Positions 331-63,491 of a DNA stretch of 64,000 nt are shown here, one piece after another. Numbering within the stretch: the first letter of the stretch is position 1; every line of letters starts with the position of its first letter. The notes below the pieces were generated by a model. The model ran no database searches, was not told the DNA's origin, and was given only the letters and a program-made list of their open reading frames with translations. The position numbers and the translations under genes are program-made. This DNA comes from Escherichia coli (GTDB lineage Bacteria > Pseudomonadota > Gammaproteobacteria > Enterobacterales > Enterobacteriaceae): assembly GCF_002854065.1 (NCBI RefSeq), contig NZ_CP024147.1; one strand, 5' to 3'.

Positions 331-3233
<2,903 letters not shown>

Positions 3234-3426
3234 TCACAACCCGAAGATGTTTCTTGCGACTCATCATCGTGTTGCGAAAATTTGAGAGACTCACGAACAA
3301 CTTTCGTTGTTCAGTGTTTCAATTTTCAGCTTGATCCAGATTTTTAAAGAGCAAATATCTCAAACATCACCCGAAGATGAGTTTTGAGATATTAAGGTCG
3401 GCGACTTTCACTCACAAACCAGCAAG

Positions 3427-3502
3427 TGGCGTCCCCTAGGGGATTCGAACCCCTGTTACCGCCGTGAAAGGGCGGTGTCCTGGGCCTCTAGACGAAGGGG
3501 AC
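3427..3502 (-). tRNA. gltW: tRNA-Glu in the 16S-23S spacer
   Basis: Reverse complement gtccccttcgtctagaggcccaggacaccgccctttcacggcggtaacaggggttcgaatcccctaggggacgcca; position in spacer of the clpB-proximal rrn operon. Confidence 0.95.
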
Positions 3503-3587
3503 GTATCAGTCTGCTTCGCAAGACGCCTTGCTTTTCACTTTCTATCAGACAATCTGTGTGAGCACTGCAAAGAACGCTTCTTTAAGG

Positions 3588-5129
<1,542 letters not shown>

Positions 5130-5253
5130 AAAAGTTTGATGCTCAAAGAATTAAACTTCGTAATGAATTACGTGTTCACTCTTGAGACTTGGTATTCATT
5201 TTTCGTCTTGCGACGTTAAGAATCCGTATCTTCGAGTGCCCACACAGATTGTC

Positions 5254-5273
5254 TGATAAATTGTTAAAGAGCA
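5254..5273 (-). promoter_or_regulatory. rrn leader boxA antitermination element
   Basis: Reverse complement tgctctttaacaatttatca in the leader between P2 and the 16S 5-prime end. Confidence 0.7.
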
Positions 5274-5310
5274 GTGCCGCTTCGCTTTTTCTCAGCGGCG
5301 CGGGGTATGC

Positions 5311-5338
5311 ATAATACGCTTTCCCGCCACAGAGTCAA
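5311..5338 (-). promoter_or_regulatory. rrn P2 promoter
   Basis: Reverse complement gives -35 TTGACT and -10 TATTAT with 16-bp spacer. Confidence 0.7.
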
Positions 5339-5429
5339 GCATTTATTTTTGCTTTCTCTACCGGAATTCTCAGGAGAACCCCGCTGACCCGGCGGCGTGT
5401 TTGCCGTTGTTCCGTGTCAGTGGTGGCGC

Positions 5430-5480
5430 ATTATAGGGAGTTATTCCGGCCTGACAAGCGAAAAATATAAAAACTTTATC
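5430..5480 (-). promoter_or_regulatory. rrn P1 promoter with GC-rich discriminator and AT-rich UP element
   Basis: Reverse complement TTGTCAggccggaataactcccTATAATgcgccaccactg; A/T-rich block immediately upstream. Confidence 0.8.
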
Positions 5481-5541
5481 GTTCGCTCACTTTTCAGGCA
5501 AAACATCTTAAATATAGTCTTTTCCGTCTAACTTATAGACA

Positions 5542-9007: not shown

Positions 9008-9984
9008 AACCAGTCCACTTCATCCTTATGTTCTTCGAAATCGGCACGCATCGCCTCAATCAGCTCCACCATATCTTGTGGAATAGGCGCATGCCATTCC
9101 ATTTCGATGCCGGAGATCGGGTGATAAAGACGCAGCATGGTTGCATGAAGCGCCTGGCGGTCAAACTTACGCAGCGTGGAGATAAACGCTTCCGAAGCAC
9201 CTTTTGGCGGACGCGGACGGCCACCATAAACCGGATCGCCCACCAGCGGATGAGTGATATGGGCCATATGCACGCGGATCTGGTGCGTACGTCCAGTTTC
9301 CAGACGCAACCGCAGACGCGTGTGCACACGGAAGTGTTCCATGATGCGATAGTGAGTCACCGCTGGTTTGCCCATCGGATGCACCGCCATGTGAGTACGT
9401 TTGGTCGGGTGGCGACTGATTGGCTCATCCACCGTACCGCCAGCGGTCATATGACCAATCGCCACCGCTTCGTACTCACGAGTAATTTCACGCCTTTGCA
9501 AAGATTCGACTAAACGCGTCTGAGCCGGAACGGTTTTTGCCACAACCATCAGGCCAGTGGTGTCTTTATCCAGACGATGGACGATGCCCGCACGCGGTAC
9601 ATCGGCAATAGGCGGATAATAATGAAGCAACGCATTCAGTACCGTGCCATCCGGGTTACCCGCGCCAGGATGAACCACCAGGTCGCGCGGTTTATTAATG
9701 ACGATGATGTCTTCATCTTCATAGACGATATCCAGCGGGATATCCTGCGGTTCAAAACGCGCTTCTTCTTCAATCTCTGCGTTGATGGCAACCTGCTCGC
9801 CACCCAATACTTTTTCTTTCGGCTTATCACAAAGTTTGCCGTTAACCAGCACGCGCTGGTCGAGGATCCATTCTTTTATTCGCGAACGTGAATAATCCGG
9901 GAACATTTCGGCCAAAGCCTGATCTAAGCGTTGACCGAGTTGGTTTTCGGACACCGTTGCAGTGAGCTGTACTCGTTGTGCCAT
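9004..9984 (-). CDS. rluD: 23S rRNA pseudouridine synthase RluD
   Basis: 326-aa ORF, S4 domain N-terminus and pseudouridine synthase motif HRLDKDTTGLMVVAK. Confidence 0.95.
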   Translation of the reverse strand: MAQRVQLTATVSENQLGQRLDQALAEMFPDYSRSRIKEWILDQRVLVNGKLCDKPKEKVLGGEQVAINAEIEEEARFEPQDIPLDIVYEDEDIIVINKPRDLVVHPGAGNPDGTVLNALLHYYPPIADVPRAGIVHRLDKDTTGLMVVAKTVPAQTRLVESLQRREITREYEAVAIGHMTAGGTVDEPISRHPTKRTHMAVHPMGKPAVTHYRIMEHFRVHTRLRLRLETGRTHQIRVHMAHITHPLVGDPVYGGRPRPPKGASEAFISTLRKFDRQALHATMLRLYHPISGIEMEWHAPIPQDMVELIEAMRADFEEHKDEVDWL

Positions 9985-20237: not shown

Positions 20238-20295
20238 TTACTGATTTCTGGAGAAAATGCAATCAGCAGTTAATAACTCTGTCGCATAAGGTCAT

Positions 20296-29454: not shown

Positions 29455-29817
29455 GGGGCTGATTCTGGATTCGACGGGATTTGCGAAACCCAAGGTGCAT
29501 GCCGAGGGGCGGTTGGCCTCGTAAAAAGCCGCAAAAAATAGTCGCAAACGACGAAAACTACGCTTTAGCAGCTTAATAACCTGCTTAGAGCCCTCTCTCC
29601 CTAGCCTCCGCTCTTAGGACGGGGATCAAGAGAGGTCAAACCCAAAAGAGATCGCGTGGAAGCCCTGCCTGGGGTTGAAGCGTTAAAACTTAATCAGGCT
29701 AGTTTGTTAGTGGCGTGTCCGTCCGCAGCTGGCAAGCGAATGTAAAGACTGACTAAGCATGTAGTACCGAGGATGTAGGAATTTCGGACGCGGGTTCAAC
29801 TCCCGCCAGCTCCACCA
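29455..29817 (+). ncRNA. ssrA: tmRNA (transfer-messenger RNA)
   Basis: ggggctgattctggattcgacggg ... gcgggttcaactcccgccagctccacca; internal tag reading frame gcaaacgacgaaaactacgctttagcagcttaa (ANDENYALAA-stop). Confidence 0.95.
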
Positions 29818-30020
29818 AAATTCTCCATCGGTGATTACCAGAGTCATCCGATGAAGTCCTAAGAGCCCGCACGGCGCAAGCCCTGCGGGCTTTTTTGTGC
29901 CCTGAATTTGTCCCGCGAAGTCCGAAGAGAACTAATTAAATCCGAACCTTTTAGGCCCATTGATAGGCCCAACGAAAAGCTCTATTGTTTTCGTTGGGCC
30001 TAAACGCATGGAGACTCCCC

Positions 30021-31262
30021 ATGGCAAGAAAAACCAAGCCGTTAACCGATACGGAAATCAAAGCCGCCAAACCTAAAGATGCCGATTACCAGCTGTATGA
30101 TGGTGACGGGCTTACTCTGCTAATCAAGTCCAGCGGTAGTAAGCTCTGGCAGTTCCGTTACTATCGACCTCTGACCAAGCAGCGAACCAAGCAGAGCTTC
30201 GGAGCCTATCCAGCCGTCTCCCTTTCTGATGCGCGTAAACTCAGAGCTGAATCTCGAGCTTTGTTGGCGAAAGACATTGATCCTCAGGAACATCAGAAAG
30301 AACAGGTGAGAAATTCTCAAGAGGCCAAAACCAACACTTTCCGGTTAGTTGCCGAGCGTTGGTGGAATGTGAAGAAAGCCAGCGTAACAGAGGACTATGC
30401 CGACGATATCTGGCGCTCGCTTGAGAGGGATGTTCTCCCGGCAATCGGTGATATCAGTGTCACTGAGATTAAGGCTCATACTTTGGTTAAAGCAGTTCAT
30501 CCGGTTCAGGCCAGAGGTGCATTAGAGACAGTCCGCCGCCTTTGTCAGCGTATTAACGAAGTCATGATTTATGCGCAGAACACAGGCCTGATTGATGCGG
30601 TTCCCAGCGTAAACATCGGGAAAGCATTCGAGAAACCGCAAAAGAAAAACATGCCAAGCATCCACCCAGGTCAACTTCCACAGCTAATGCAGACTATGCG
30701 TACGGCAAGTATCAGCCTGTCCACACGATGCCTGTTCATGTGGCAGCTTCTCACCATCACCCGCCCTGCCGAAGCTGCTGAGGCTCGATGGGATGAGATC
30801 GATTTCGATGCTAGCGAATGGAAAATTCCAGCTGCTCGAATGAAGATGAATCGGGAGCATACGGTTCCATTATCTGATGGAGCTCTCGCTATTCTGGAAA
30901 TAATGAAGTCTCTCAGCGGTGGTCGAGAATTTATCTTTCCCAGTCGCATTAAGCCTACCCAGCCGATGAACAGCCAGACAGTAAATGCAGCCCTTAAGCG
31001 TGCTGGTTTAGGAGGCGTACTCGTTTCACACGGCTTACGTTCTATTGCCAGTACGGCACTCAATGAGGAAGGATTTCCGCCTGATGTTATTGAGGCTGCA
31101 CTTGCTCATGTAGATAAGAATGAGGTACGTCGCGCTTACAATCGAAGTGACTATCTTGAGCAACGACGACCGATGATGCAGTGGTGGGCTGATTTTGTTA
31201 AAGCAGCAGATAGCGGCAGTATCGTGAATAGTGGGGTTAGGGGAATACGTCTTGTAGGATGA
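30021..31262 (+). CDS. intA: P4-type tyrosine integrase (prophage remnant at the ssrA attachment site)
   Basis: Start moved to MARKTKPLTDTEIKAAKPKDADYQLYDGDGLTL... (413 aa); C-terminal catalytic region includes HGLRS and a tyrosine near the end. Confidence 0.9.
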   Translation: MARKTKPLTDTEIKAAKPKDADYQLYDGDGLTLLIKSSGSKLWQFRYYRPLTKQRTKQSFGAYPAVSLSDARKLRAESRALLAKDIDPQEHQKEQVRNSQEAKTNTFRLVAERWWNVKKASVTEDYADDIWRSLERDVLPAIGDISVTEIKAHTLVKAVHPVQARGALETVRRLCQRINEVMIYAQNTGLIDAVPSVNIGKAFEKPQKKNMPSIHPGQLPQLMQTMRTASISLSTRCLFMWQLLTITRPAEAAEARWDEIDFDASEWKIPAARMKMNREHTVPLSDGALAILEIMKSLSGGREFIFPSRIKPTQPMNSQTVNAALKRAGLGGVLVSHGLRSIASTALNEEGFPPDVIEAALAHVDKNEVRRAYNRSDYLEQRRPMMQWWADFVKAADSGSIVNSGVRGIRLVG

Positions 31263-31536
31263 ATCCTTTATCAGCACCCATTATGGGTGCTGATAACTCA
31301 CCTATAGGTAATACGGAATTTTACCCTTTGGTTTTCTTTTTTCTAGTAACCGTATTATCGAAAGCCAATTTGATACTCTCAATATTTCTTGACCAGTTTT
31401 TTATAATGGTATCTGCCAATGCATCAGGGCTCATTGTTGATATCCGATATTTTTTACTTTGATTATTAATTTCAAAATTTGGGTGATGCTGCCAACTTAC
31501 TGATTTAGTGTATGATGGTGTTTTTGAGGTGCTCCA

Positions 31537-31812
31537 GTGGCTTCTGTTTCTATCAGCTGTCCCTCCTGTTCAGCTACTGACGGGGTGGTGCGTAACGGCA
31601 AAAGCACTGCCGGACATCAGCGCTATCTCTGCTCTCACTGCCGTAAAACATGGCAACTGCAGTTCACTTACACCGCTTCTCAACCCGGTACGCACCAGAA
31701 AATCATTGATATGGCCATGAATGGCGTTGGATGCCGGGCAACCGCCCGCATTATGGGCGTTGGCCTCAACACGATTTTCCGCCATTTAAAAAACTCAGGC
31801 CGCAGTCGGTAA
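31537..31812 (+). CDS. insA: IS1 InsA (transposition inhibitor; N-terminal part of the InsAB' transposase)
   Basis: 91-aa [68 protein letters not shown]...; the -1 frameshift site A6C (ttaaaaaactc) lies near 31788-31794. Confidence 0.9.
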
Positions 31813-32234
31813 CCTCGCGCATACAGCCGGGCAGTGACGTCATCGTCTGCGCGGAAATGGACGAACAGTGGGGATACGTCGGGGCTAAATCGCGCCAGCG
31901 CTGGCTGTTTTACGCGTATGACAGGCTCCGGAAGACGGTTGTTGCGCACGTATTCGGTGAACGCACTATGGCGACGCTGGGGCGTCTTATGAGCCTGCTG
32001 TCACCCTTTGACGTGGTGATATGGATGACGGATGGCTGGCCGCTGTATGAATCCCGCCTGAAGGGAAAGCTGCACGTAATCAGCAAGCGATATACGCAGC
32101 GAATTGAGCGGCATAACCTGAATCTGAGGCAGCACCTGGCACGGCTGGGACGGAAGTCGCTGTCGTTCTCAAAATCGGTGGAGCTGCATGACAAAGTCAT
32201 CGGGCATTATCTGAACATAAAACACTATCAATAA
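31731..32234 (+). CDS. insB: IS1 InsB reading frame (expressed as InsAB' by -1 frameshift)
   Basis: 167-aa ORF overlapping the insA 3-prime end in the -1 frame. Confidence 0.9.
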
Positions 32235-32249
32235 GTTGGAGTCATTACC

Positions 32250-33713
32250 GAAAAAGGTTACTGGTTTCACGCTTATCAACCCGAAGATCTTTGTACCATC
32301 CACAATCCAATGGGAGATTTGCAGGATTTTATCGCATTGGTTAAAGATGCTAAAAAATTTGGTATCGATATCATTCCTGATTATACCTTTAACTTTATGG
32401 GAATCGGGGGTAGTAGTAAAAATGACCTGGATTATCCCTCTGCTGATATACGAGCGAAGATCAGTAAAGATATAGAAGGTGGTATCCCTGGCTATTGGCA
32501 AGGTCAGGTTTTGATTCCATTTATTATCGATCCAGTAACAAAAGAACGTAAACAAATCCATCCAGAAGATATACATCTCACTGCAAAAGACTTCGAAGCT
32601 AGTAAAGATAATATTTCTAAGGATGAATGGGAAAACCTCCATGCATTAAAAGAAAAGCGTTTAAACGGAATGCCTAAAACAACCCCAAAAAGTGACCAGG
32701 TTATTATGCTGCAAAATCAATACGTTCGTGAAATGCGAAAATATGGCGTACGAGGTTTACGTTATGATGCGGCAAAACACTCAAAACATGAACAAATAGA
32801 AAGATCAATAACCCCACCGCTTAAAAATTATAATGAGCGATTACACAATACTAACTTATTTAACCCAAAATATCATGAAAAAGTCGTTATGAATTACATG
32901 GAATATCTGGTAACTTGCCAGTTGGATGAACAACAAATGTCATCGCTACTTTATGAAAGAGATGATTTAAGCGCCATTGATTTTTCATTGCTCATGAAGA
33001 CGATAAAAGCCTTTTCATTTGGTGGCGATCTCCAAACCCTTGCATCAAAACCGGGTTCCACAATCTCAAGCATCCCATCAGAAAGACGGATATTGATTAA
33101 CATTAACCACGATTTTCCTAACAATGGCAATCTTTTCAATGACTTTCTATTTAACCATCAACAAGATGAACAATTAGCAATGGCATATATGGCCGCTCTC
33201 CCGTTCAGCAGGCCTTTAGTTTACTGGGATGGCCAAGTATTAAAATCAACGACTGAAATTAAAAATGATGATGGGTCGACGCGTGTCGGCGGTGAGGCGT
33301 GGCTTAATAAAGGTTGCTCTACCTATCAGCAGCTCTACAATGAATTCCACGCATTATATATAGATAAAGCAGGAATATGGAGCGCATTTGAGGGTGTATT
33401 TGCAACTAAAAACGTTCTGGCCTTTAGTCGTGGGGATTCTGTGAATATTAATCACTCTCCTCATGACGGACTAGTTATAATAAATAAAGGAAACGAAGAA
33501 GTTGAAGGTACCTGGCCTAACAAATTGCAACCTGGAAAATATAAAAACATGGGGAGTAATAGCGTTAACATTATTATTAATAATACCCGAAAATTTATCC
33601 CCCCTGGTAAAGTATTTACGCTTAGAGGCGGAACTCTAAATATCAATATTCCTGGGCGTAGCGCTCTTCTTTTAGGGAAAACAGGAGAACTGCCGAACTA
33701 TCTCTATTTGTAA
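32250..33713 (+). pseudogene. 5-prime-truncated glycoside hydrolase family 13 (alpha-amylase-like) gene, cut by IS1
   Basis: Frame is open from the IS1 boundary; GH13-like conserved blocks GDLQDFIALVKDAKKFGIDIIPD, GLRYDAAKH and ININHD are present but the N-terminal part of the barrel is missing; no Shine-Dalgarno before the first ATG (32310). Confidence 0.6.
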
Positions 33714-33725
33714 TTTAATGTTATA

Positions 33726-33749
33726 TCTGCCCCGCTAAAACGGGGCAGA
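33726..33749 (+). terminator. Perfect dyad after the GH13 fragment
   Basis: atctgccccg-ctaaaa-cggggcagat, 10-bp perfect arms; no strong T-run follows. Confidence 0.4.
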
Positions 33750-34006
33750 TAATATGTTTAGTTTACTGACGGTCATTTTGCAGTGAAGCCATTTACTGTT
33801 TTTTATCGACCAGATAATCTGTTCTCTGATGGTAATTCCCCCCTAACCTGTTGCTTTAGTTATTCATTTCCTGTCTCACTTTGCCTTAATACCCTACGTT
33901 AAATGTTACTAATTTGTTGTTTTTGATCACAATAAGTAAACAATATGTCGCTTTTGTGCGCATTTTTCAGAAATGTAGATATTTTTAGATTATGGCTACG
34001 AAATGA

Positions 34007-35026
<1,020 letters not shown>

Positions 35027-39084: not shown

Positions 39085-39352
39085 CCCCCATGCCGGAGGC
39101 GACGCTGCGCGTCTTGTCCGGCCTACGAGAGTGTAGGTCGGATAAGGCGTTTACGCCGCATCCGACAATCGGCGCACCCTGCCGGAGGCGATGCTTACGC
39201 GTCTTGTCCGGCCTACGGAAATGTAGATCGGATAAGGCGTTTACGCCGCATCCGACATTCGGCGCATCCATGCCGGAGGCGACGCTGCGCGTCTTGTCCG
39301 GCCTACGAGAGTGTAGGTCGGATAAGGCGTTTACGCCGCATCCTACAATCTG
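39085..39352. repeat. Three tandem REP/BIME units (about 90-bp period)
   Basis: gccggaggcgacgctgcgcgtcttgtccggcctac...taggtcggataaggcgtttacgccgcatccgaca occurs three times with small differences. Confidence 0.85.
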
Positions 39353-45718: not shown

Positions 45719-45867
45719 TGAGACGATGACAAGCAGTAGTCTGACTTCTGAAAAGTACTCAGTGCGTCAACGCCTTGTCCGCCTACAGGCCTGAAAAACA
45801 TAGCGCATCAGGGGATTTTGCCCTGGTCACCAGTCTTATAGGACCCCGAAGCCTGGCTTCGGAGTTA

Positions 45868-47202
45868 TTAATTTAAAGCACTGCGCAATTGCTGTGCTAC
45901 CTGTCGCGCCATACTTTCGCTAACGATATTCGTAAACGAGAGCAATAATCCTCCGTCCTCGCTTGAGCGGATACGCCAGTCGCTAAGTGCCTGTACGGCA
46001 AGACCAGCAGCATTGGCTTTATGCACGAATGTCACGTCATTACCTGCTAGTTTGATCACCATCTGGATACCGCCTTTTTGCGGCACAACCTGAAATCCCT
46101 GCTGCGTAAGTGCCTGCTCAATCCACTGCCGTCGCTGGGCATAATGCTGGCGCATTTTCTTCAGATGCCGCCAGAAATGCCCCTCACGGATGAAATCTGC
46201 CAGTGTGTTCTGCCACAGTACGGGTACAGCACATGGTTCCAGTGACGCCTGCTGCCGGAATTGCGAAATCTGCTCCACCGGCACCACCAGCCACGCACAG
46301 CGCAATGCAGGAAATAGCGCTTTGCTGAATGTTCCGGCATAAATCACCCGCTGCGGCGCGTCGAGACTTTTTAGTGCCGGTAACGGCTTACCGTGATAGC
46401 GAAACTCACTGTCGTAATCATCTTCAATAATCCATGCCTGACTACGCTCTGCCCATTCCAGTATCTGATACCTACGCGCTAAAGAGAGTGCCACACCCAG
46501 CGGGCTTTGGTGTGCCGGAGTAATCAGGGCAAAACGCGCATCAGGATAATTTTGTATTCCGCTTGTGACATCCAGTCCGTTGTCATCAACCGGCACAGGT
46601 AAAATTTCCAGACCGTGGCGAGTGACAATCGGGCGAATCAGCGGAAAGCCGGGATCTTCCATCCACATCCCGTCTCCCGGTTGCGCCAGAGCGTGCAGAA
46701 TTAAAGCCATTGAGGCCGCATAACCGTGAGTGATAAAGACCTGCTCTGGCTGACAATCAATCCCACGTGAAACGCGTAAATAATCAACAATAGCCTCGCG
46801 CAAGGCCGCCTCGCCGCAGACATCACCTAATGCCAAATCAAAACGCGTCTGGGTACGCAGACGGCGGCCCATCACCCGCGCCCACAATTCACGCGGAAAA
46901 AGATCAAGTGCAGGTAGCCCCATCTGAAAAGGCAGCGGCTGCTGACTTTCACCAGCAAAAGCCACGACATCCACAGCAGACTGTTGCGGATGTATCTGCT
47001 CACTGACAAAGGTACCCGCCTGTCCCCGCCTGACCAGCCATCCCTGCGCCACCAGCTCAGCATAAGCATTTTCGACAGTGGATCGAGAGACACCCAGCTC
47101 CTGCGACCAGGTACGGCTCGAGGGTAGCCTTGCGCCAGGTTTCAGTTCTCCTTGCTCGATAGCCGTTTTTAACTGACGGGCGATATCCTGATAACGTGGC
47201 AT
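45868..47202 (-). CDS. MocR/GabR-type regulator (GntR wHTH fused to a fold-type I aminotransferase-like PLP domain)
   Basis: 444-aa ORF; N-terminal MPRYQDIARQLKTAIEQGELKPGARLPSSRTWSQELGVSRSTVENAYAELVAQGWL (GntR HTH) and a putative PLP lysine in YAGTFSKALFPALR. Confidence 0.85.
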   Translation of the reverse strand: MPRYQDIARQLKTAIEQGELKPGARLPSSRTWSQELGVSRSTVENAYAELVAQGWLVRRGQAGTFVSEQIHPQQSAVDVVAFAGESQQPLPFQMGLPALDLFPRELWARVMGRRLRTQTRFDLALGDVCGEAALREAIVDYLRVSRGIDCQPEQVFITHGYAASMALILHALAQPGDGMWMEDPGFPLIRPIVTRHGLEILPVPVDDNGLDVTSGIQNYPDARFALITPAHQSPLGVALSLARRYQILEWAERSQAWIIEDDYDSEFRYHGKPLPALKSLDAPQRVIYAGTFSKALFPALRCAWLVVPVEQISQFRQQASLEPCAVPVLWQNTLADFIREGHFWRHLKKMRQHYAQRRQWIEQALTQQGFQVVPQKGGIQMVIKLAGNDVTFVHKANAAGLAVQALSDWRIRSSEDGGLLLSFTNIVSESMARQVAQQLRSALN

Positions 47203-47289
47203 ATGGTCTGCTTTTTTAGGTAATTTATGGCTCTCTTTAGCAGTCCATTATAGTGCTACATTGCGGGCGTTAATAAGAGGAGAAACTGT

Positions 47290-47721
47290 ATGACTACATT
47301 ACGTCAGCCTTACTACGAACTTAGCCCGGCAGTGTATAACGCACTGGTGCAGGCCAAAACGGCACTGGAAAATAGCACGCTGGATACCACGTTGATGGAG
47401 TTAATTTATTTGCGCGTCTCGCAAATCAACGGCTGCGCATTTTGTCTGGAGATGCACAGCAAAGCATTGCGCAAATCCGGTGTGCCACAACACAAACTGG
47501 ACGCCCTGGCAGGCTGGCGCGTAAGCCATCATTTTGATGAACGCGAGCGAGCGGCGCTGGCATGGGCGGAATCAGTGACCGATATTGCCAGAACCCATGC
47601 GGAAGACGAGGTTTATCAGCCTTTGCTTGAGCATTTCAGCGCAGCAGAAATCAGCGATTTAACGTTTGCCATCGGGCTGATGAATTGTTTTAACCGTCTG
47701 GCCGTTTCCATGCGGATGTAA
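47290..47721 (+). CDS. Carboxymuconolactone decarboxylase / AhpD-like family protein
   Basis: 143-aa ORF with NGCAFCLEMH (CxxC...H) signature; strong AAGAGGAG Shine-Dalgarno; divergent from the MocR gene. Confidence 0.8.
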   Translation: MTTLRQPYYELSPAVYNALVQAKTALENSTLDTTLMELIYLRVSQINGCAFCLEMHSKALRKSGVPQHKLDALAGWRVSHHFDERERAALAWAESVTDIARTHAEDEVYQPLLEHFSAAEISDLTFAIGLMNCFNRLAVSMRM

Positions 47722-47728
47722 TTTGCTG

Positions 47729-47757
47729 TTGCCGGGTATGCGCCCGGCAAAAAAACA
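47729..47757. terminator. GC-rich hairpin after the AhpD-like gene (atypical terminator)
   Basis: ttgccggg-tatgcg-cccggcaa followed by an A-run rather than a T-run on the plus strand. Confidence 0.35.
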
Positions 47758-47929
47758 CAAAATCCCCTACCCCGTTGAGCCATTCACCGGTGGCGTAATC
47801 AATCTAAAATTCCCATATCTTGTGTGGTTGAATCTTTTTTCAACTACATCTAGTATCTCTGTATCAACAGAGAGACAACCCGACGCGTATCATCGCGCCG
47901 TATCTTCATTTTAAACGGAAATACGAATC

Positions 47930-55340: not shown

Positions 55341-55425
<85 letters not shown>

Positions 55426-61369: not shown

Positions 61370-61377
61370 GGTTGTCA

Positions 61378-61404
61378 AAGGGAGCTTCGGCTCCCTTTTT
61401 ATTT
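61378..61404 (+). terminator. emrB intrinsic terminator
   Basis: gggagc-ttcg-gctccc followed by tttttattt. Confidence 0.75.
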
Positions 61405-61626
61405 GCTCATTGTGCAAACGGTTGTTTTATCCACTCATTCGGTGTATCTTTTCGCCGCCCCAAACTCTTCCATTCACTATTAACCGGTTCTGAGCATTCG
61501 CTCAGGTTGTTAATTCTCTTTTTCCTTCGCCCTCGCTTTCGCGGGTGATACTCACATTTTCCGTTTAACCCCATAACTCGCACCCTCGCGGGCGTACGTT
61601 TATTACACACAAAATAATGGATTATT

Positions 61627-62334
61627 ATGAATACCCAACTTAAATACGGGAGAACCTGGCATTATCCTTTCTCCCCCGGCACCACCAGCGATGACCGCAT
61701 TAACGCCGATTACTGGCAGGATTTACAGGCCATCGCGCAACTGGTGCATACAGAAAAACTCGACGGCGAAAATAACTGCCTTAACCGCTACGGTGTGTTT
61801 GCCCGTTCCCATGCCGCGCCTACGCAGTCGGCATGGACCTATAAAATTCGCCAGCGTTGGCAACTGCTGAAAAACGATCTCGGCGACCTGGAGTTGTTTG
61901 GCGAAAATCTCTACGCCGTTCATTCCATTGAATACCGCGCGCTGGAACAGGACTTTTACCTGTTTGCCGTTCGCTGCCAGGATATGTGGCTGAGCTGGGA
62001 AGAGGTGCAGTTTTACGCCGCCCTGTTTGATTTCCCCTGCGTTCCCGAAATCTCCGGCCCGCAGCCGGGGAATGATGAAAAAAGCTGGCAACGTGATTTT
62101 CTGGCACTGACCAATGCGCGCGGCGCGTTCGATCCCTGGGATACACAAACCGGGCAACCCTGTACTCTGGAAGGCATTGTCAGCCGGAATCGTGATGCGT
62201 TTTCCGTCGCTGACTTTTCGCATAACGTCTTCAAGTATGTGCGCAAAAATCATGTCAAAACCACTGTGCACTGGAAACGACACTGGCAACGGGCGCGGAT
62301 GGCCCATGAGTTCGCTTATGGAGAACAGTCATGA
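61627..62334 (+). CDS. Putative ATP-dependent polynucleotide ligase (minimal covalent nucleotidyltransferase)
   Basis: 235-aa ORF with candidate nucleotidyltransferase motifs: [35 protein letters not shown]; ATG start; 4-nt ATGA overlap with the next gene. Confidence 0.7.
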
Positions 62335-63443
62335 TTTGGCAGCTTACCGACGATAAACGCTGGTCGACACTACGCCAGCGTTTCAGTTGGGTTGAGGAGA
62401 TGCATCACACGCCACAAGACCCGGAGCATCATGGTGAAGGTGACGTCGGCGTGCATACCGAAATGGTGCTTAACGCCCTTGTTACTCAGCCAGAATTCCA
62501 GCAACTCCCCGCTCAACAGCAGGAAGTTTTATGGGCGGCGGCGTTATTACATGATGTTGAAAAGCGCAGCACTACCGTGCAGGAAAACGGACGTATTCAG
62601 TCGCCGGGCCATGCTCGTCGGGGCGAACTGACGGCCCGGCTGATTTTGTGGCGCGATATCCCAACGCCGTTCGTGCTGCGCGAGCAAATCGTTGCGCTGG
62701 TGCGTCTGCATGGGTTACCGCTATGGTTACTGGAACGTCCGGAACCGGAGCGTTTGTTGCTCACGGCTGCAATGCGCATCGACACGCGTCTGCTCACTTT
62801 GCTTGCTCGTGCCGATCTGCTTGGTCGCCAAAGCCCGGATCAGCAATCAATGCTGGAACGCATCGATCTGTTCGAGCTGTTTTGCCAGGAGCAACAGTGT
62901 TGGGGAAAAGTGCGCTCGTTCGTGTCTGATTCCGCACGCTGGCATTACCTGACCCATGAGCAAAGTTCTCCTGATTTTGTTCCCTGGGAGGCTGAACCTT
63001 TTGAGGGCATTTTGCTGTGTGGCTTACCGGGTATGGGCAAAGATCGCTATATCAATGAACAGTGCCAGGGAATGGACGTTATCAGCCTTGATGATATGCG
63101 GCGGCGAATCAATGCCAATCCGGACGACAAAACCGCCACCGGGCGTATTGTGCAACAGGCAAAAGAAGAGGCACGCGTTTTTTTACGCCAGAAAAAGCCG
63201 TTCATCTGGAATGCAACGAACTTTACCCGCCAGCTTCGTAGCCAGCTCATCAGCCTGTTTACGGCTTACGGCGCACGAGTAAAAATAGTTTATCTTGAAG
63301 TGCCATGGGCGCAATGGAAGCAGCAAAATGCCAGACGCGAGTATGCAGTTCCTGAAGCGGTCGTGATGCGGATGGCCTCAAGGCTGGAAGTTCCTCAACC
63401 TGATGAAGCACATAGCGTGGAGTATCGGGTGATTGAAAGGTAA
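62331..63443 (+). CDS. Putative HD-domain phosphoesterase fused to a 5-prime-OH polynucleotide-kinase-like P-loop domain
   Basis: 370-aa ORF: N-terminal HD signature ([10 protein letters not shown] ... LLHDVEK ... D), C-terminal P-loop GLPGMGKD followed by ISLDDMRRR and TRQLR, resembling polynucleotide kinase catalytic motifs. Confidence 0.7.
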
Positions 63444-63448
63444 AAAAA

Positions 63449-63473
63449 CCGGGCGGTGGTGTCACCTGCCCGG
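63449..63473. terminator. Bidirectional terminator between the HD-kinase gene and luxS
   Basis: ccgggcggtg-gtgt-cacctgcccgg with A7 upstream and T-rich downstream. Confidence 0.65.
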
Positions 63474-63491
63474 CTTCTTTTGTTCCACTGA

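Follow-up and report, generated by a model that had tools for sequence, protein, structure and literature searches.

The ssrA-glaH interval of one Escherichia coli chromosome raises the question of how an intact integrase gene, intA, can stand beside ssrA, the gene for transfer-messenger RNA (tmRNA), with no prophage left for it to excise. We analysed a 64-kb stretch of assembly GCF_002854065.1 (contig NZ_CP024147.1), called the window here, and positions are window positions unless another locus is named. The window is E. coli chromosome and is colinear with that of K-12 MG1655 from rrnG to luxS. In the interval of interest ssrA is followed by intA, the stub of a yfjH-like gene, a copy of the insertion sequence (IS) IS1, a 5′-truncated ygaQ (ygaQ′) and glaH, also called csiD (Table 1). 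The answer we favour, with a probability of about 55% for the account as a whole, is that an IS1 adjacent deletion removed a CP4-57-like island together with a piece of the neighbouring chromosome, and that the integrase is a neutral leftover of this event.

Compared with K-12 MG1655, 29,822 bp are absent (K-12 positions 2757364-2787185). They comprise the rest of CP4-57, the right attachment site (attR)/psaA, ypjA, pinH, ypjB, ypjC, ileY and the first 789 bp of ygaQ. The deletion passes the right end of the island and continues into the flanking chromosome, where the non-island loss amounts to ~9.2 kb when measured against the backbone of the near-clonal strain 100416. This part includes ileY, one of the two E. 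coli genes for tRNA-Ile(CAU), which is gone from the locus. To the right of the scar the ygaQ-glaH spacer is 336 bp long, the same as in K-12. The GC content is 32% in the yfjH-like stub and 38% in ygaQ′, for 51% in the whole window.

The element lying between the two truncated genes can be classed as an IS1 from its length of 768 bp, its inverted repeats (the left one, at 31482-31504, is an exact match), insA at 31537-31812, insB′ extending to 32234 and the A6C -1 frameshift site (AAAAAAC) at 31788, with NF033558 matching both open reading frames (ORFs). It shares 99.1-99.2% identity with IS1A copies from other places and has exactly the sequence (100% identity) of the IS1 that strain CUWW06 carries at this locus, which RefSeq annotates as an intact transposase gene whose frameshift is programmed. 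The sequences bordering it differ, CAAAATTTG on the left and GAAAAAGGT on the right, and the 9-bp target-site duplication is absent. Since no flanking 9-mer is shared (a duplication of 8-10 bp would be expected), the locus was rearranged after the insertion and does not represent a simple insertion. The left flank belongs to the island yfjH-like gene and the right flank to the middle of ygaQ. In the unbroken sequence of strain MS 115-1 the left breakpoint goes on as ACTCTTCG..., and in the unbroken sequence of 100416 the bases ahead of the right breakpoint read ...CCCGAAGAA; the two breakpoints lack any shared microhomology. IS1 is the agent of the loss and not a mere neighbour of it, because a target duplication is missing and two unrelated breakpoints have been joined.

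On the left side of the scar, ssrA is 100% identical to that of 100416 and Z503. Homology to the island-free 100416 chromosome ends at 29819, and chromosomal backbone gives way to other DNA at 29820. The arm of the left attachment site (attL) that begins here is identical to the left end of K-12 CP4-57 over the stretch compared and provides ssrA with its terminator, a stem at 29878-29892 followed by a T run that was detected by the terminator scan. The integrase ORF starts with the ATG at 30021 and matches NF007246 (PRK09692) over residues 1-413 of 413, with 904.2 bits for a cut-off of 434. Three Pfam domains are recognized, Arm-DNA-bind_3 (PF13356, residues 8-95), Phage_int_M (PF22022, 107-198) and Phage_integrase (PF00589, 215-378), and the catalytic signature R248, H337-x-x-R340, H363 and Y373 is present, as judged from motif positions assigned by eye. 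IntA is 94.2% identical to the K-12 protein, which also has 413 residues, and it agrees with that of MS 115-1 at 412 of 413 positions and with that of CUWW06 at all of them. Family and domain matches thus place the predicted protein among the P4/CP4-57 IntA-type tyrosine integrases; a PADLOC search with the integrase gave no match. Upstream of intA, an inverted repeat with perfect 15-nt arms 9 nt apart (29964-30002) overlaps the sole promoter-like site and may be an operator controlling intA. Downstream, intA and the yfjH-like gene converge on a perfect hairpin, which probably terminates transcription in both directions. The minus-strand translation of the stub matches the C-terminus of a 292-amino-acid protein of MS 115-1.

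The locus shares with CP4-57 of K-12 the site at the 3′ end of ssrA, the left arm carrying the ssrA terminator and the 413-residue integrase. It differs in that only attL, intA and the 161-bp stub remain and that the gene next to intA is the MS 115-1-type yfjH-like allele, and in that the CP4-57 cargo (abpAB, rnlAB, ypjF-yfjZ and others), alpA and attR, all present in K-12, are gone. A K-12-like island was considered as the direct parent and rejected, as homology to it stops 37 bp before the intA stop codon and the stub is the MS 115-1 allele. A second copy of the att core of ssrA, whether of the attL type or of the K-12 attR (psaA) type, was looked for throughout the 64-kb window with 25-nt and 12-nt cores and up to 3 mismatches, and none was found. 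The sole copy of the 25-nt core is that of ssrA itself (29793-29817), and two 12-mers with one mismatch, at 9060-9071 and, within glaH, at 34380-34391, have no hallmarks of an att site. Absent as well is alpA, the activator of intA and of excision, which MS 115-1 and K-12 both possess. With attR and alpA gone the integrase is left without anything to excise, and an excisable CP4-57-type island, bounded by attL and attR and carrying alpA and cargo, no longer exists at this site.

An earlier note on this DNA had described an intact 413-residue P4-type integrase after ssrA, IS1 about 220 bp beyond its stop codon, a 5′-truncated fragment of the alpha-amylase family running into csiD, the loss of the K-12 prophage with flanking genes, and an integrase with no prophage to excise. 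All of this agrees with our data, with coordinates that match or differ by a few bases: NF007246 is matched over its full length, the stop codon and IS1 are 219 bp apart (161 bp of which are the yfjH-like stub), the fragment corresponds to codons 264-750 of ygaQ and is followed by glaH at 34049, the missing DNA is the 29,822 bp defined above, and the window contains neither attR nor alpA.

The truncated gene on the right side has lost the codons for the N-terminal 263 residues of YgaQ and with them the initial strands of the catalytic barrel. In the alignment of the full protein to the Pfam Alpha-amylase model (PF00128), residue 264 corresponds to model position 48; the motifs ILHAFN (residue 219) and YIQIPPV (residue 244), in the segment 219-250, are lost, and the region II-like GLRYDAAKH and the NHD motif are kept. 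The first in-frame ATG, at 32310, opens an ORF of 467 amino acids. Such a product would not contain a complete GH13 (β/α)8 catalytic domain and, judging from the missing barrel strands, should be inactive. In full-length YgaQ a divergent GH13 domain comes after ~215 N-terminal amino acids that match no Pfam model; the gene is AT-rich. In K-12, as in many further strains, a frameshift makes it a pseudogene; an intact ORF of 750 amino acids is present in 100416 and HCP4S3_I4 (positions 2397-4649 and 3272-5524 of the respective extracted loci).

How recent and how local the event was can be judged from the closest relatives. Over 24.7 kb, just two of 5,426 complete E. coli genomes, CUWW06 and 100416, are essentially identical to the window (100% in the case of 100416), all others reaching at most 98.9%. 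These three near-clonal strains nevertheless have three different layouts between ssrA and glaH. In 100416, ssrA is followed by a P2-like prophage, ypjA, a pinH remnant, ypjCB, ileY, an intact ygaQ and glaH, without an intA island; in CUWW06 it is followed by a different P2-like prophage, intA, IS1 and ygaQ′. Since the island-free sister 100416 has an intact backbone, the window represents a derived deletion and not an ancestral empty site. From ygaQ′ to lhgO a single base out of 3751 differs between the window and 100416, which means that ygaQ′ is native to the lineage and was truncated in situ rather than imported. The island side is matched by MS 115-1 with 99.8% identity as far as 31481, beyond which MS 115-1 continues and the window has IS1; downstream of intA, MS 115-1 has the yfjH-like gene, alpA, yfjI and a gene of the gp2 family. 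MS 115-1 also has an IS1, but it was rejected as the same element, being only 93% identical and having other junctions.

CUWW06 carries the identical 768-bp IS1 between identical flanks but the loss reaches 109 bp farther leftwards (31373-31481) and 51 bp farther rightwards (32250-32300), CUWW06 locus positions 4595-5369 corresponding to 31367-32301 of the window. The scar was thus trimmed further in this strain and has kept changing. The 109-bp loss sits between two copies of AATTTG, and the 51-bp loss is associated with only 1 bp of homology. At the left junctions of both CUWW06 and the window AATTTG directly abuts the IS1 end, which may reflect a target preference of IS1, slippage or coincidence. 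Each sister genome has at least 40 IS1 matches, compared with a median of 10 across the species, and the lineage is therefore IS1-rich.

The same kind of scar recurs in other E. coli. We compared nine genomes (DX6, MB06173, SW071618, PI24, EC2001, HCP4S3_I4, Z503, MS 115-1 and CUWW06) in which IS1 lies between a remnant of the ssrA island, or ypjA, and ileY or ygaQ, with differing breakpoints and with integrase alleles of 85-100% identity. A target duplication is absent at all nine IS1 copies inspected at the locus. DX6, MB06173 and SW071618 have one common IS1-ygaQ junction combined with three nested left junctions, a nested series with a fixed right end that is accounted for by one-ended adjacent deletions, because these leave such a footprint. 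The deletion cuts into the integrase in HCP4S3_I4, EC2001 and SW071618; its endpoint lies within the gene in the first two, and about 600 bp of island DNA are left in SW071618. Each lineage has its own breakpoints, and the two junctions of the window are unique among the 5,426 genomes. When 200-bp probes across each IS1 junction were compared with these genomes, the nine full-coverage matches to the right junction were all made up of two pieces, with IS1 at other positions of ygaQ. At least 80% of the ileY-ygaQ segment is kept in 3,336 of the 5,426 genomes (~61%); among a spread sample of 60 records, the others have a ygaQ 5′-truncated at several recurrent positions or none at all. With three layouts in three near-clonal strains, the ssrA-glaH interval ranks among the less stable parts of the E. 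coli chromosome.

Several different temperate phages also use ssrA in tandem in the relatives: CUWW06 and 100416 have P2-like prophages (two different ones), MS 115-1 has a lambdoid one and DX6 has another. All of them have their own integrases and are located between ssrA and the older intA remnant or, as in 100416, the backbone starting with ypjA. At the junctions of such arrays in CUWW06 and MS 115-1, 35-45 bp of the ssrA 3′ end recur (from 29773 or 29783 to 29817), and attR of the 100416 prophage matches ssrA 29773-29810.

Adjacent deletions and deletions by recombination between two copies are both classic for IS1. The course of events that we infer would start with the insertion of a CP4-57-like island, with an integrase allele of the MS 115-1 type, at the 3′ end of ssrA. 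From an IS1 copy in AT-rich DNA between the island and glaH, an adjacent deletion mediated by the IS1 transposase, through intramolecular replicative transposition in one or more steps, would then have removed everything from within the yfjH-like gene to codon 263 of ygaQ, that is alpA, the rest of the island, attR, ypjA, ypjCB and ileY. Left behind would be attL, still supplying the ssrA terminator, an intact intA, the 161-bp stub, IS1 and a headless ygaQ. Deprived of its attR partner and of the activator AlpA, the integrase could no longer perform excision and would persist as a neutral leftover. Its intactness is best read as the chance position of a deletion endpoint, one point on a continuum of endpoints, because some of the IS1 deletions in other lineages cut into the integrase. 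In E. coli, IS-adjacent deletions grow stepwise and without duplications (PMC11708052), a pattern of deletion extension with which the additional trimming in CUWW06 is in keeping. Adjacent deletions by IS150 and IS-IS recombination deletions have been followed in the Lenski long-term evolution lines (PMC11708052). Our locus shows the same complete IS amid the deletion, the same lack of a duplication and nested or extended forms in relatives, with no difference in kind.

Several points weigh against this account. An ancestor carrying IS1 before the deletion was not found, as neither junction of the window occurs in the 5,426 complete genomes. CUWW06 differs from the window on both sides of IS1, and a single adjacent deletion alters one side; moreover, its 109-bp loss could have occurred by replication slippage. 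The common orientation of IS1 at the locus, tried as a sign of one ancestral IS1, proved uninformative, since the search joins pieces on one strand only and the sample is biased accordingly. The neutrality of the integrase we infer from the variable endpoints in other lineages. Finally, the main alternative, which would leave the same footprint and is about half as probable, is that two IS1 copies inserted independently in direct orientation, in the yfjH-like gene and in ygaQ respectively, recombined via RecA, with loss of the interval and retention of one hybrid IS1. Such an event predicts precisely a single IS1 whose flanks stem from separate insertions and have no 9-mer in common, and IS-IS recombination is a frequent cause of absent duplications (PMC11708052). 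An IS1-rich lineage and the many IS1 positions seen in ygaQ and in the island across E. coli would have favoured it. However, neither of the two single insertions it requires was found at these positions among the 5,426 genomes, and the two-sided trimming of CUWW06 together with the DX6, MB06173 and SW071618 series is explained more economically by adjacent deletion than by repeated pairs of insertions.

As to the fate of the integrase, it appears improbable that selection has kept it, whether because it serves other elements at ssrA, acts as a regulator or belongs to a favoured attL remnant which prevents excision that would inactivate tmRNA. In K-12, overexpression of AlpA induces excision of CP4-57 and leaves ssrA with a one-base deletion and an inactive tmRNA (PMC10107115). 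The K-12 attR core lacks the T concerned, which fits the one-base deletion. Since excision is no longer possible in our strain, ssrA is fixed in its intact form. The intA ORF is moreover intact and identical in two strains, and in relatives ssrA is a busy integration site with tandem prophages beside intA. On the other hand, these prophages bring their own integrases, the integrase has been truncated by IS1 in other lineages with no compensation seen, and the two strains sharing the intact gene are near-clonal, so that its intactness is silent on purifying selection. Still less probable, in our opinion, is that the recurrent IS1-bounded loss of attR and alpA was itself selected because it locks the left arm in place and prevents excision damaging to ssrA, the attL-intA remnant then being a stabilised and domesticated end state.

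An assembly artefact, in which two IS1 copies were collapsed and the intA and ygaQ′ sides are not really adjacent, is very unlikely. Both junctions do lie exactly at the IS1 ends and neither is found in any other complete genome, but the complete genome of CUWW06 has the same intA-IS1-ygaQ′ adjacency with slightly different junctions, and several unrelated complete genomes contain equivalent joins. The earlier note had named an ancestral prophage-free arrangement and a fragmentary integrase as findings that would contradict it; the family match of the integrase is full-length, and an ancestral state in which the integrase is a resident chromosomal gene can practically be discarded, nothing having been found in its favour, given that 100416 has ypjA, ypjCB, ileY and an intact ygaQ between ssrA and glaH, that an island gene and ygaQ are both cut in the window, and that 80% or more of ileY-ygaQ is preserved in ~61% of E. 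coli genomes.

An IS-mediated deletion leaving a prophage remnant and an orphan integrase is a well-known kind of event, and recurrent at this locus, and the case has little significance beyond bookkeeping. It provides a clean example from a natural isolate of an integrative island worn down by IS1 along with the chromosomal DNA next to it; the losses affect a tRNA-Ile(CAU) gene and a GH13-like gene that was otherwise intact. It also illustrates that no mobile element can be assumed from a full-length integrase beside a tRNA or tmRNA gene, even though annotation pipelines will still label the stranded gene "intA".

Table 1. Features of the ssrA-glaH interval (window positions)
Feature	Position	Strand	Basis
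ssrA (tmRNA gene), intact	29455-29817	+	ARAGORN; Rfam RF00023 full length, 295.8 bits
Island left end (attL arm)	29818-30020	+	100416 homology ends at 29819; likeness to K-12 CP4-57
intA, 413-amino-acid P4/CP4-57-type tyrosine integrase, orphaned	30021-31262	+	ORF, NF007246, Pfam
Perfect 14-nt hairpin in the intA/yfjH-like intergenic region	31268-31296	.	Repeat search
3′ stub of yfjH-like gene: last 53 codons and stop, 161 bp	31321-31481	-	MS 115-1 match
IS1, complete, 768 bp	31482-32249	+	Left inverted repeat search, NF033558, flanks
ygaQ′, codons 264-750 of a 750-amino-acid GH13-like protein	32250-33713	+	Alignment to 100416; Pfam
Terminator-like hairpin of ygaQ, then unaltered ygaQ-glaH spacer	33724-33751	+	Terminator scan; K-12 colinearity
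glaH (csiD), first undisturbed chromosomal gene rightward	34049-35026	+	ORF; homologous-locus annotation

Elsewhere in the window a few further differences from K-12 were noted. A 2.1-kb insert between emrB and luxS (61371-63486), absent from K-12, contains two overlapping genes on the + strand. The first (61627-62334) encodes a protein of 235 amino acids with a Pfam RNA_ligase domain and no NCBIfam name. The second (62331-63443) encodes one of 370 amino acids with a weak N-terminal HD match, a strong AAA_33 kinase match and a faint similarity to the Pnkp kinase domain. From these domain matches the pair looks like an RNA-repair module composed of an end-healing enzyme and a ligase; PADLOC gave no match for either protein. 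Another 2.1-kb insert absent from K-12 lies between ygaM and nrdH (45721-47814) and carries a gene for a MocR/PdxR-like pyridoxal phosphate-dependent regulator (45868-47202, - strand), divergent from an AhpD/carboxymuconolactone-decarboxylase-like gene (47290-47721). In the rpsP-ffh intergenic region (20282-20295), ~126 bp of K-12 (2746308-2746433) are absent; this piece is probably a repetitive extragenic palindromic (REP)-type element present in K-12 only of the two. Three matches to Rfam naRNA4, which is derived from REP sequences/bacterial interspersed mosaic elements, are found within 39136-39303 and 55342-55419, and the gabT-gabP spacer has one extra tandem naRNA4 copy compared with K-12.

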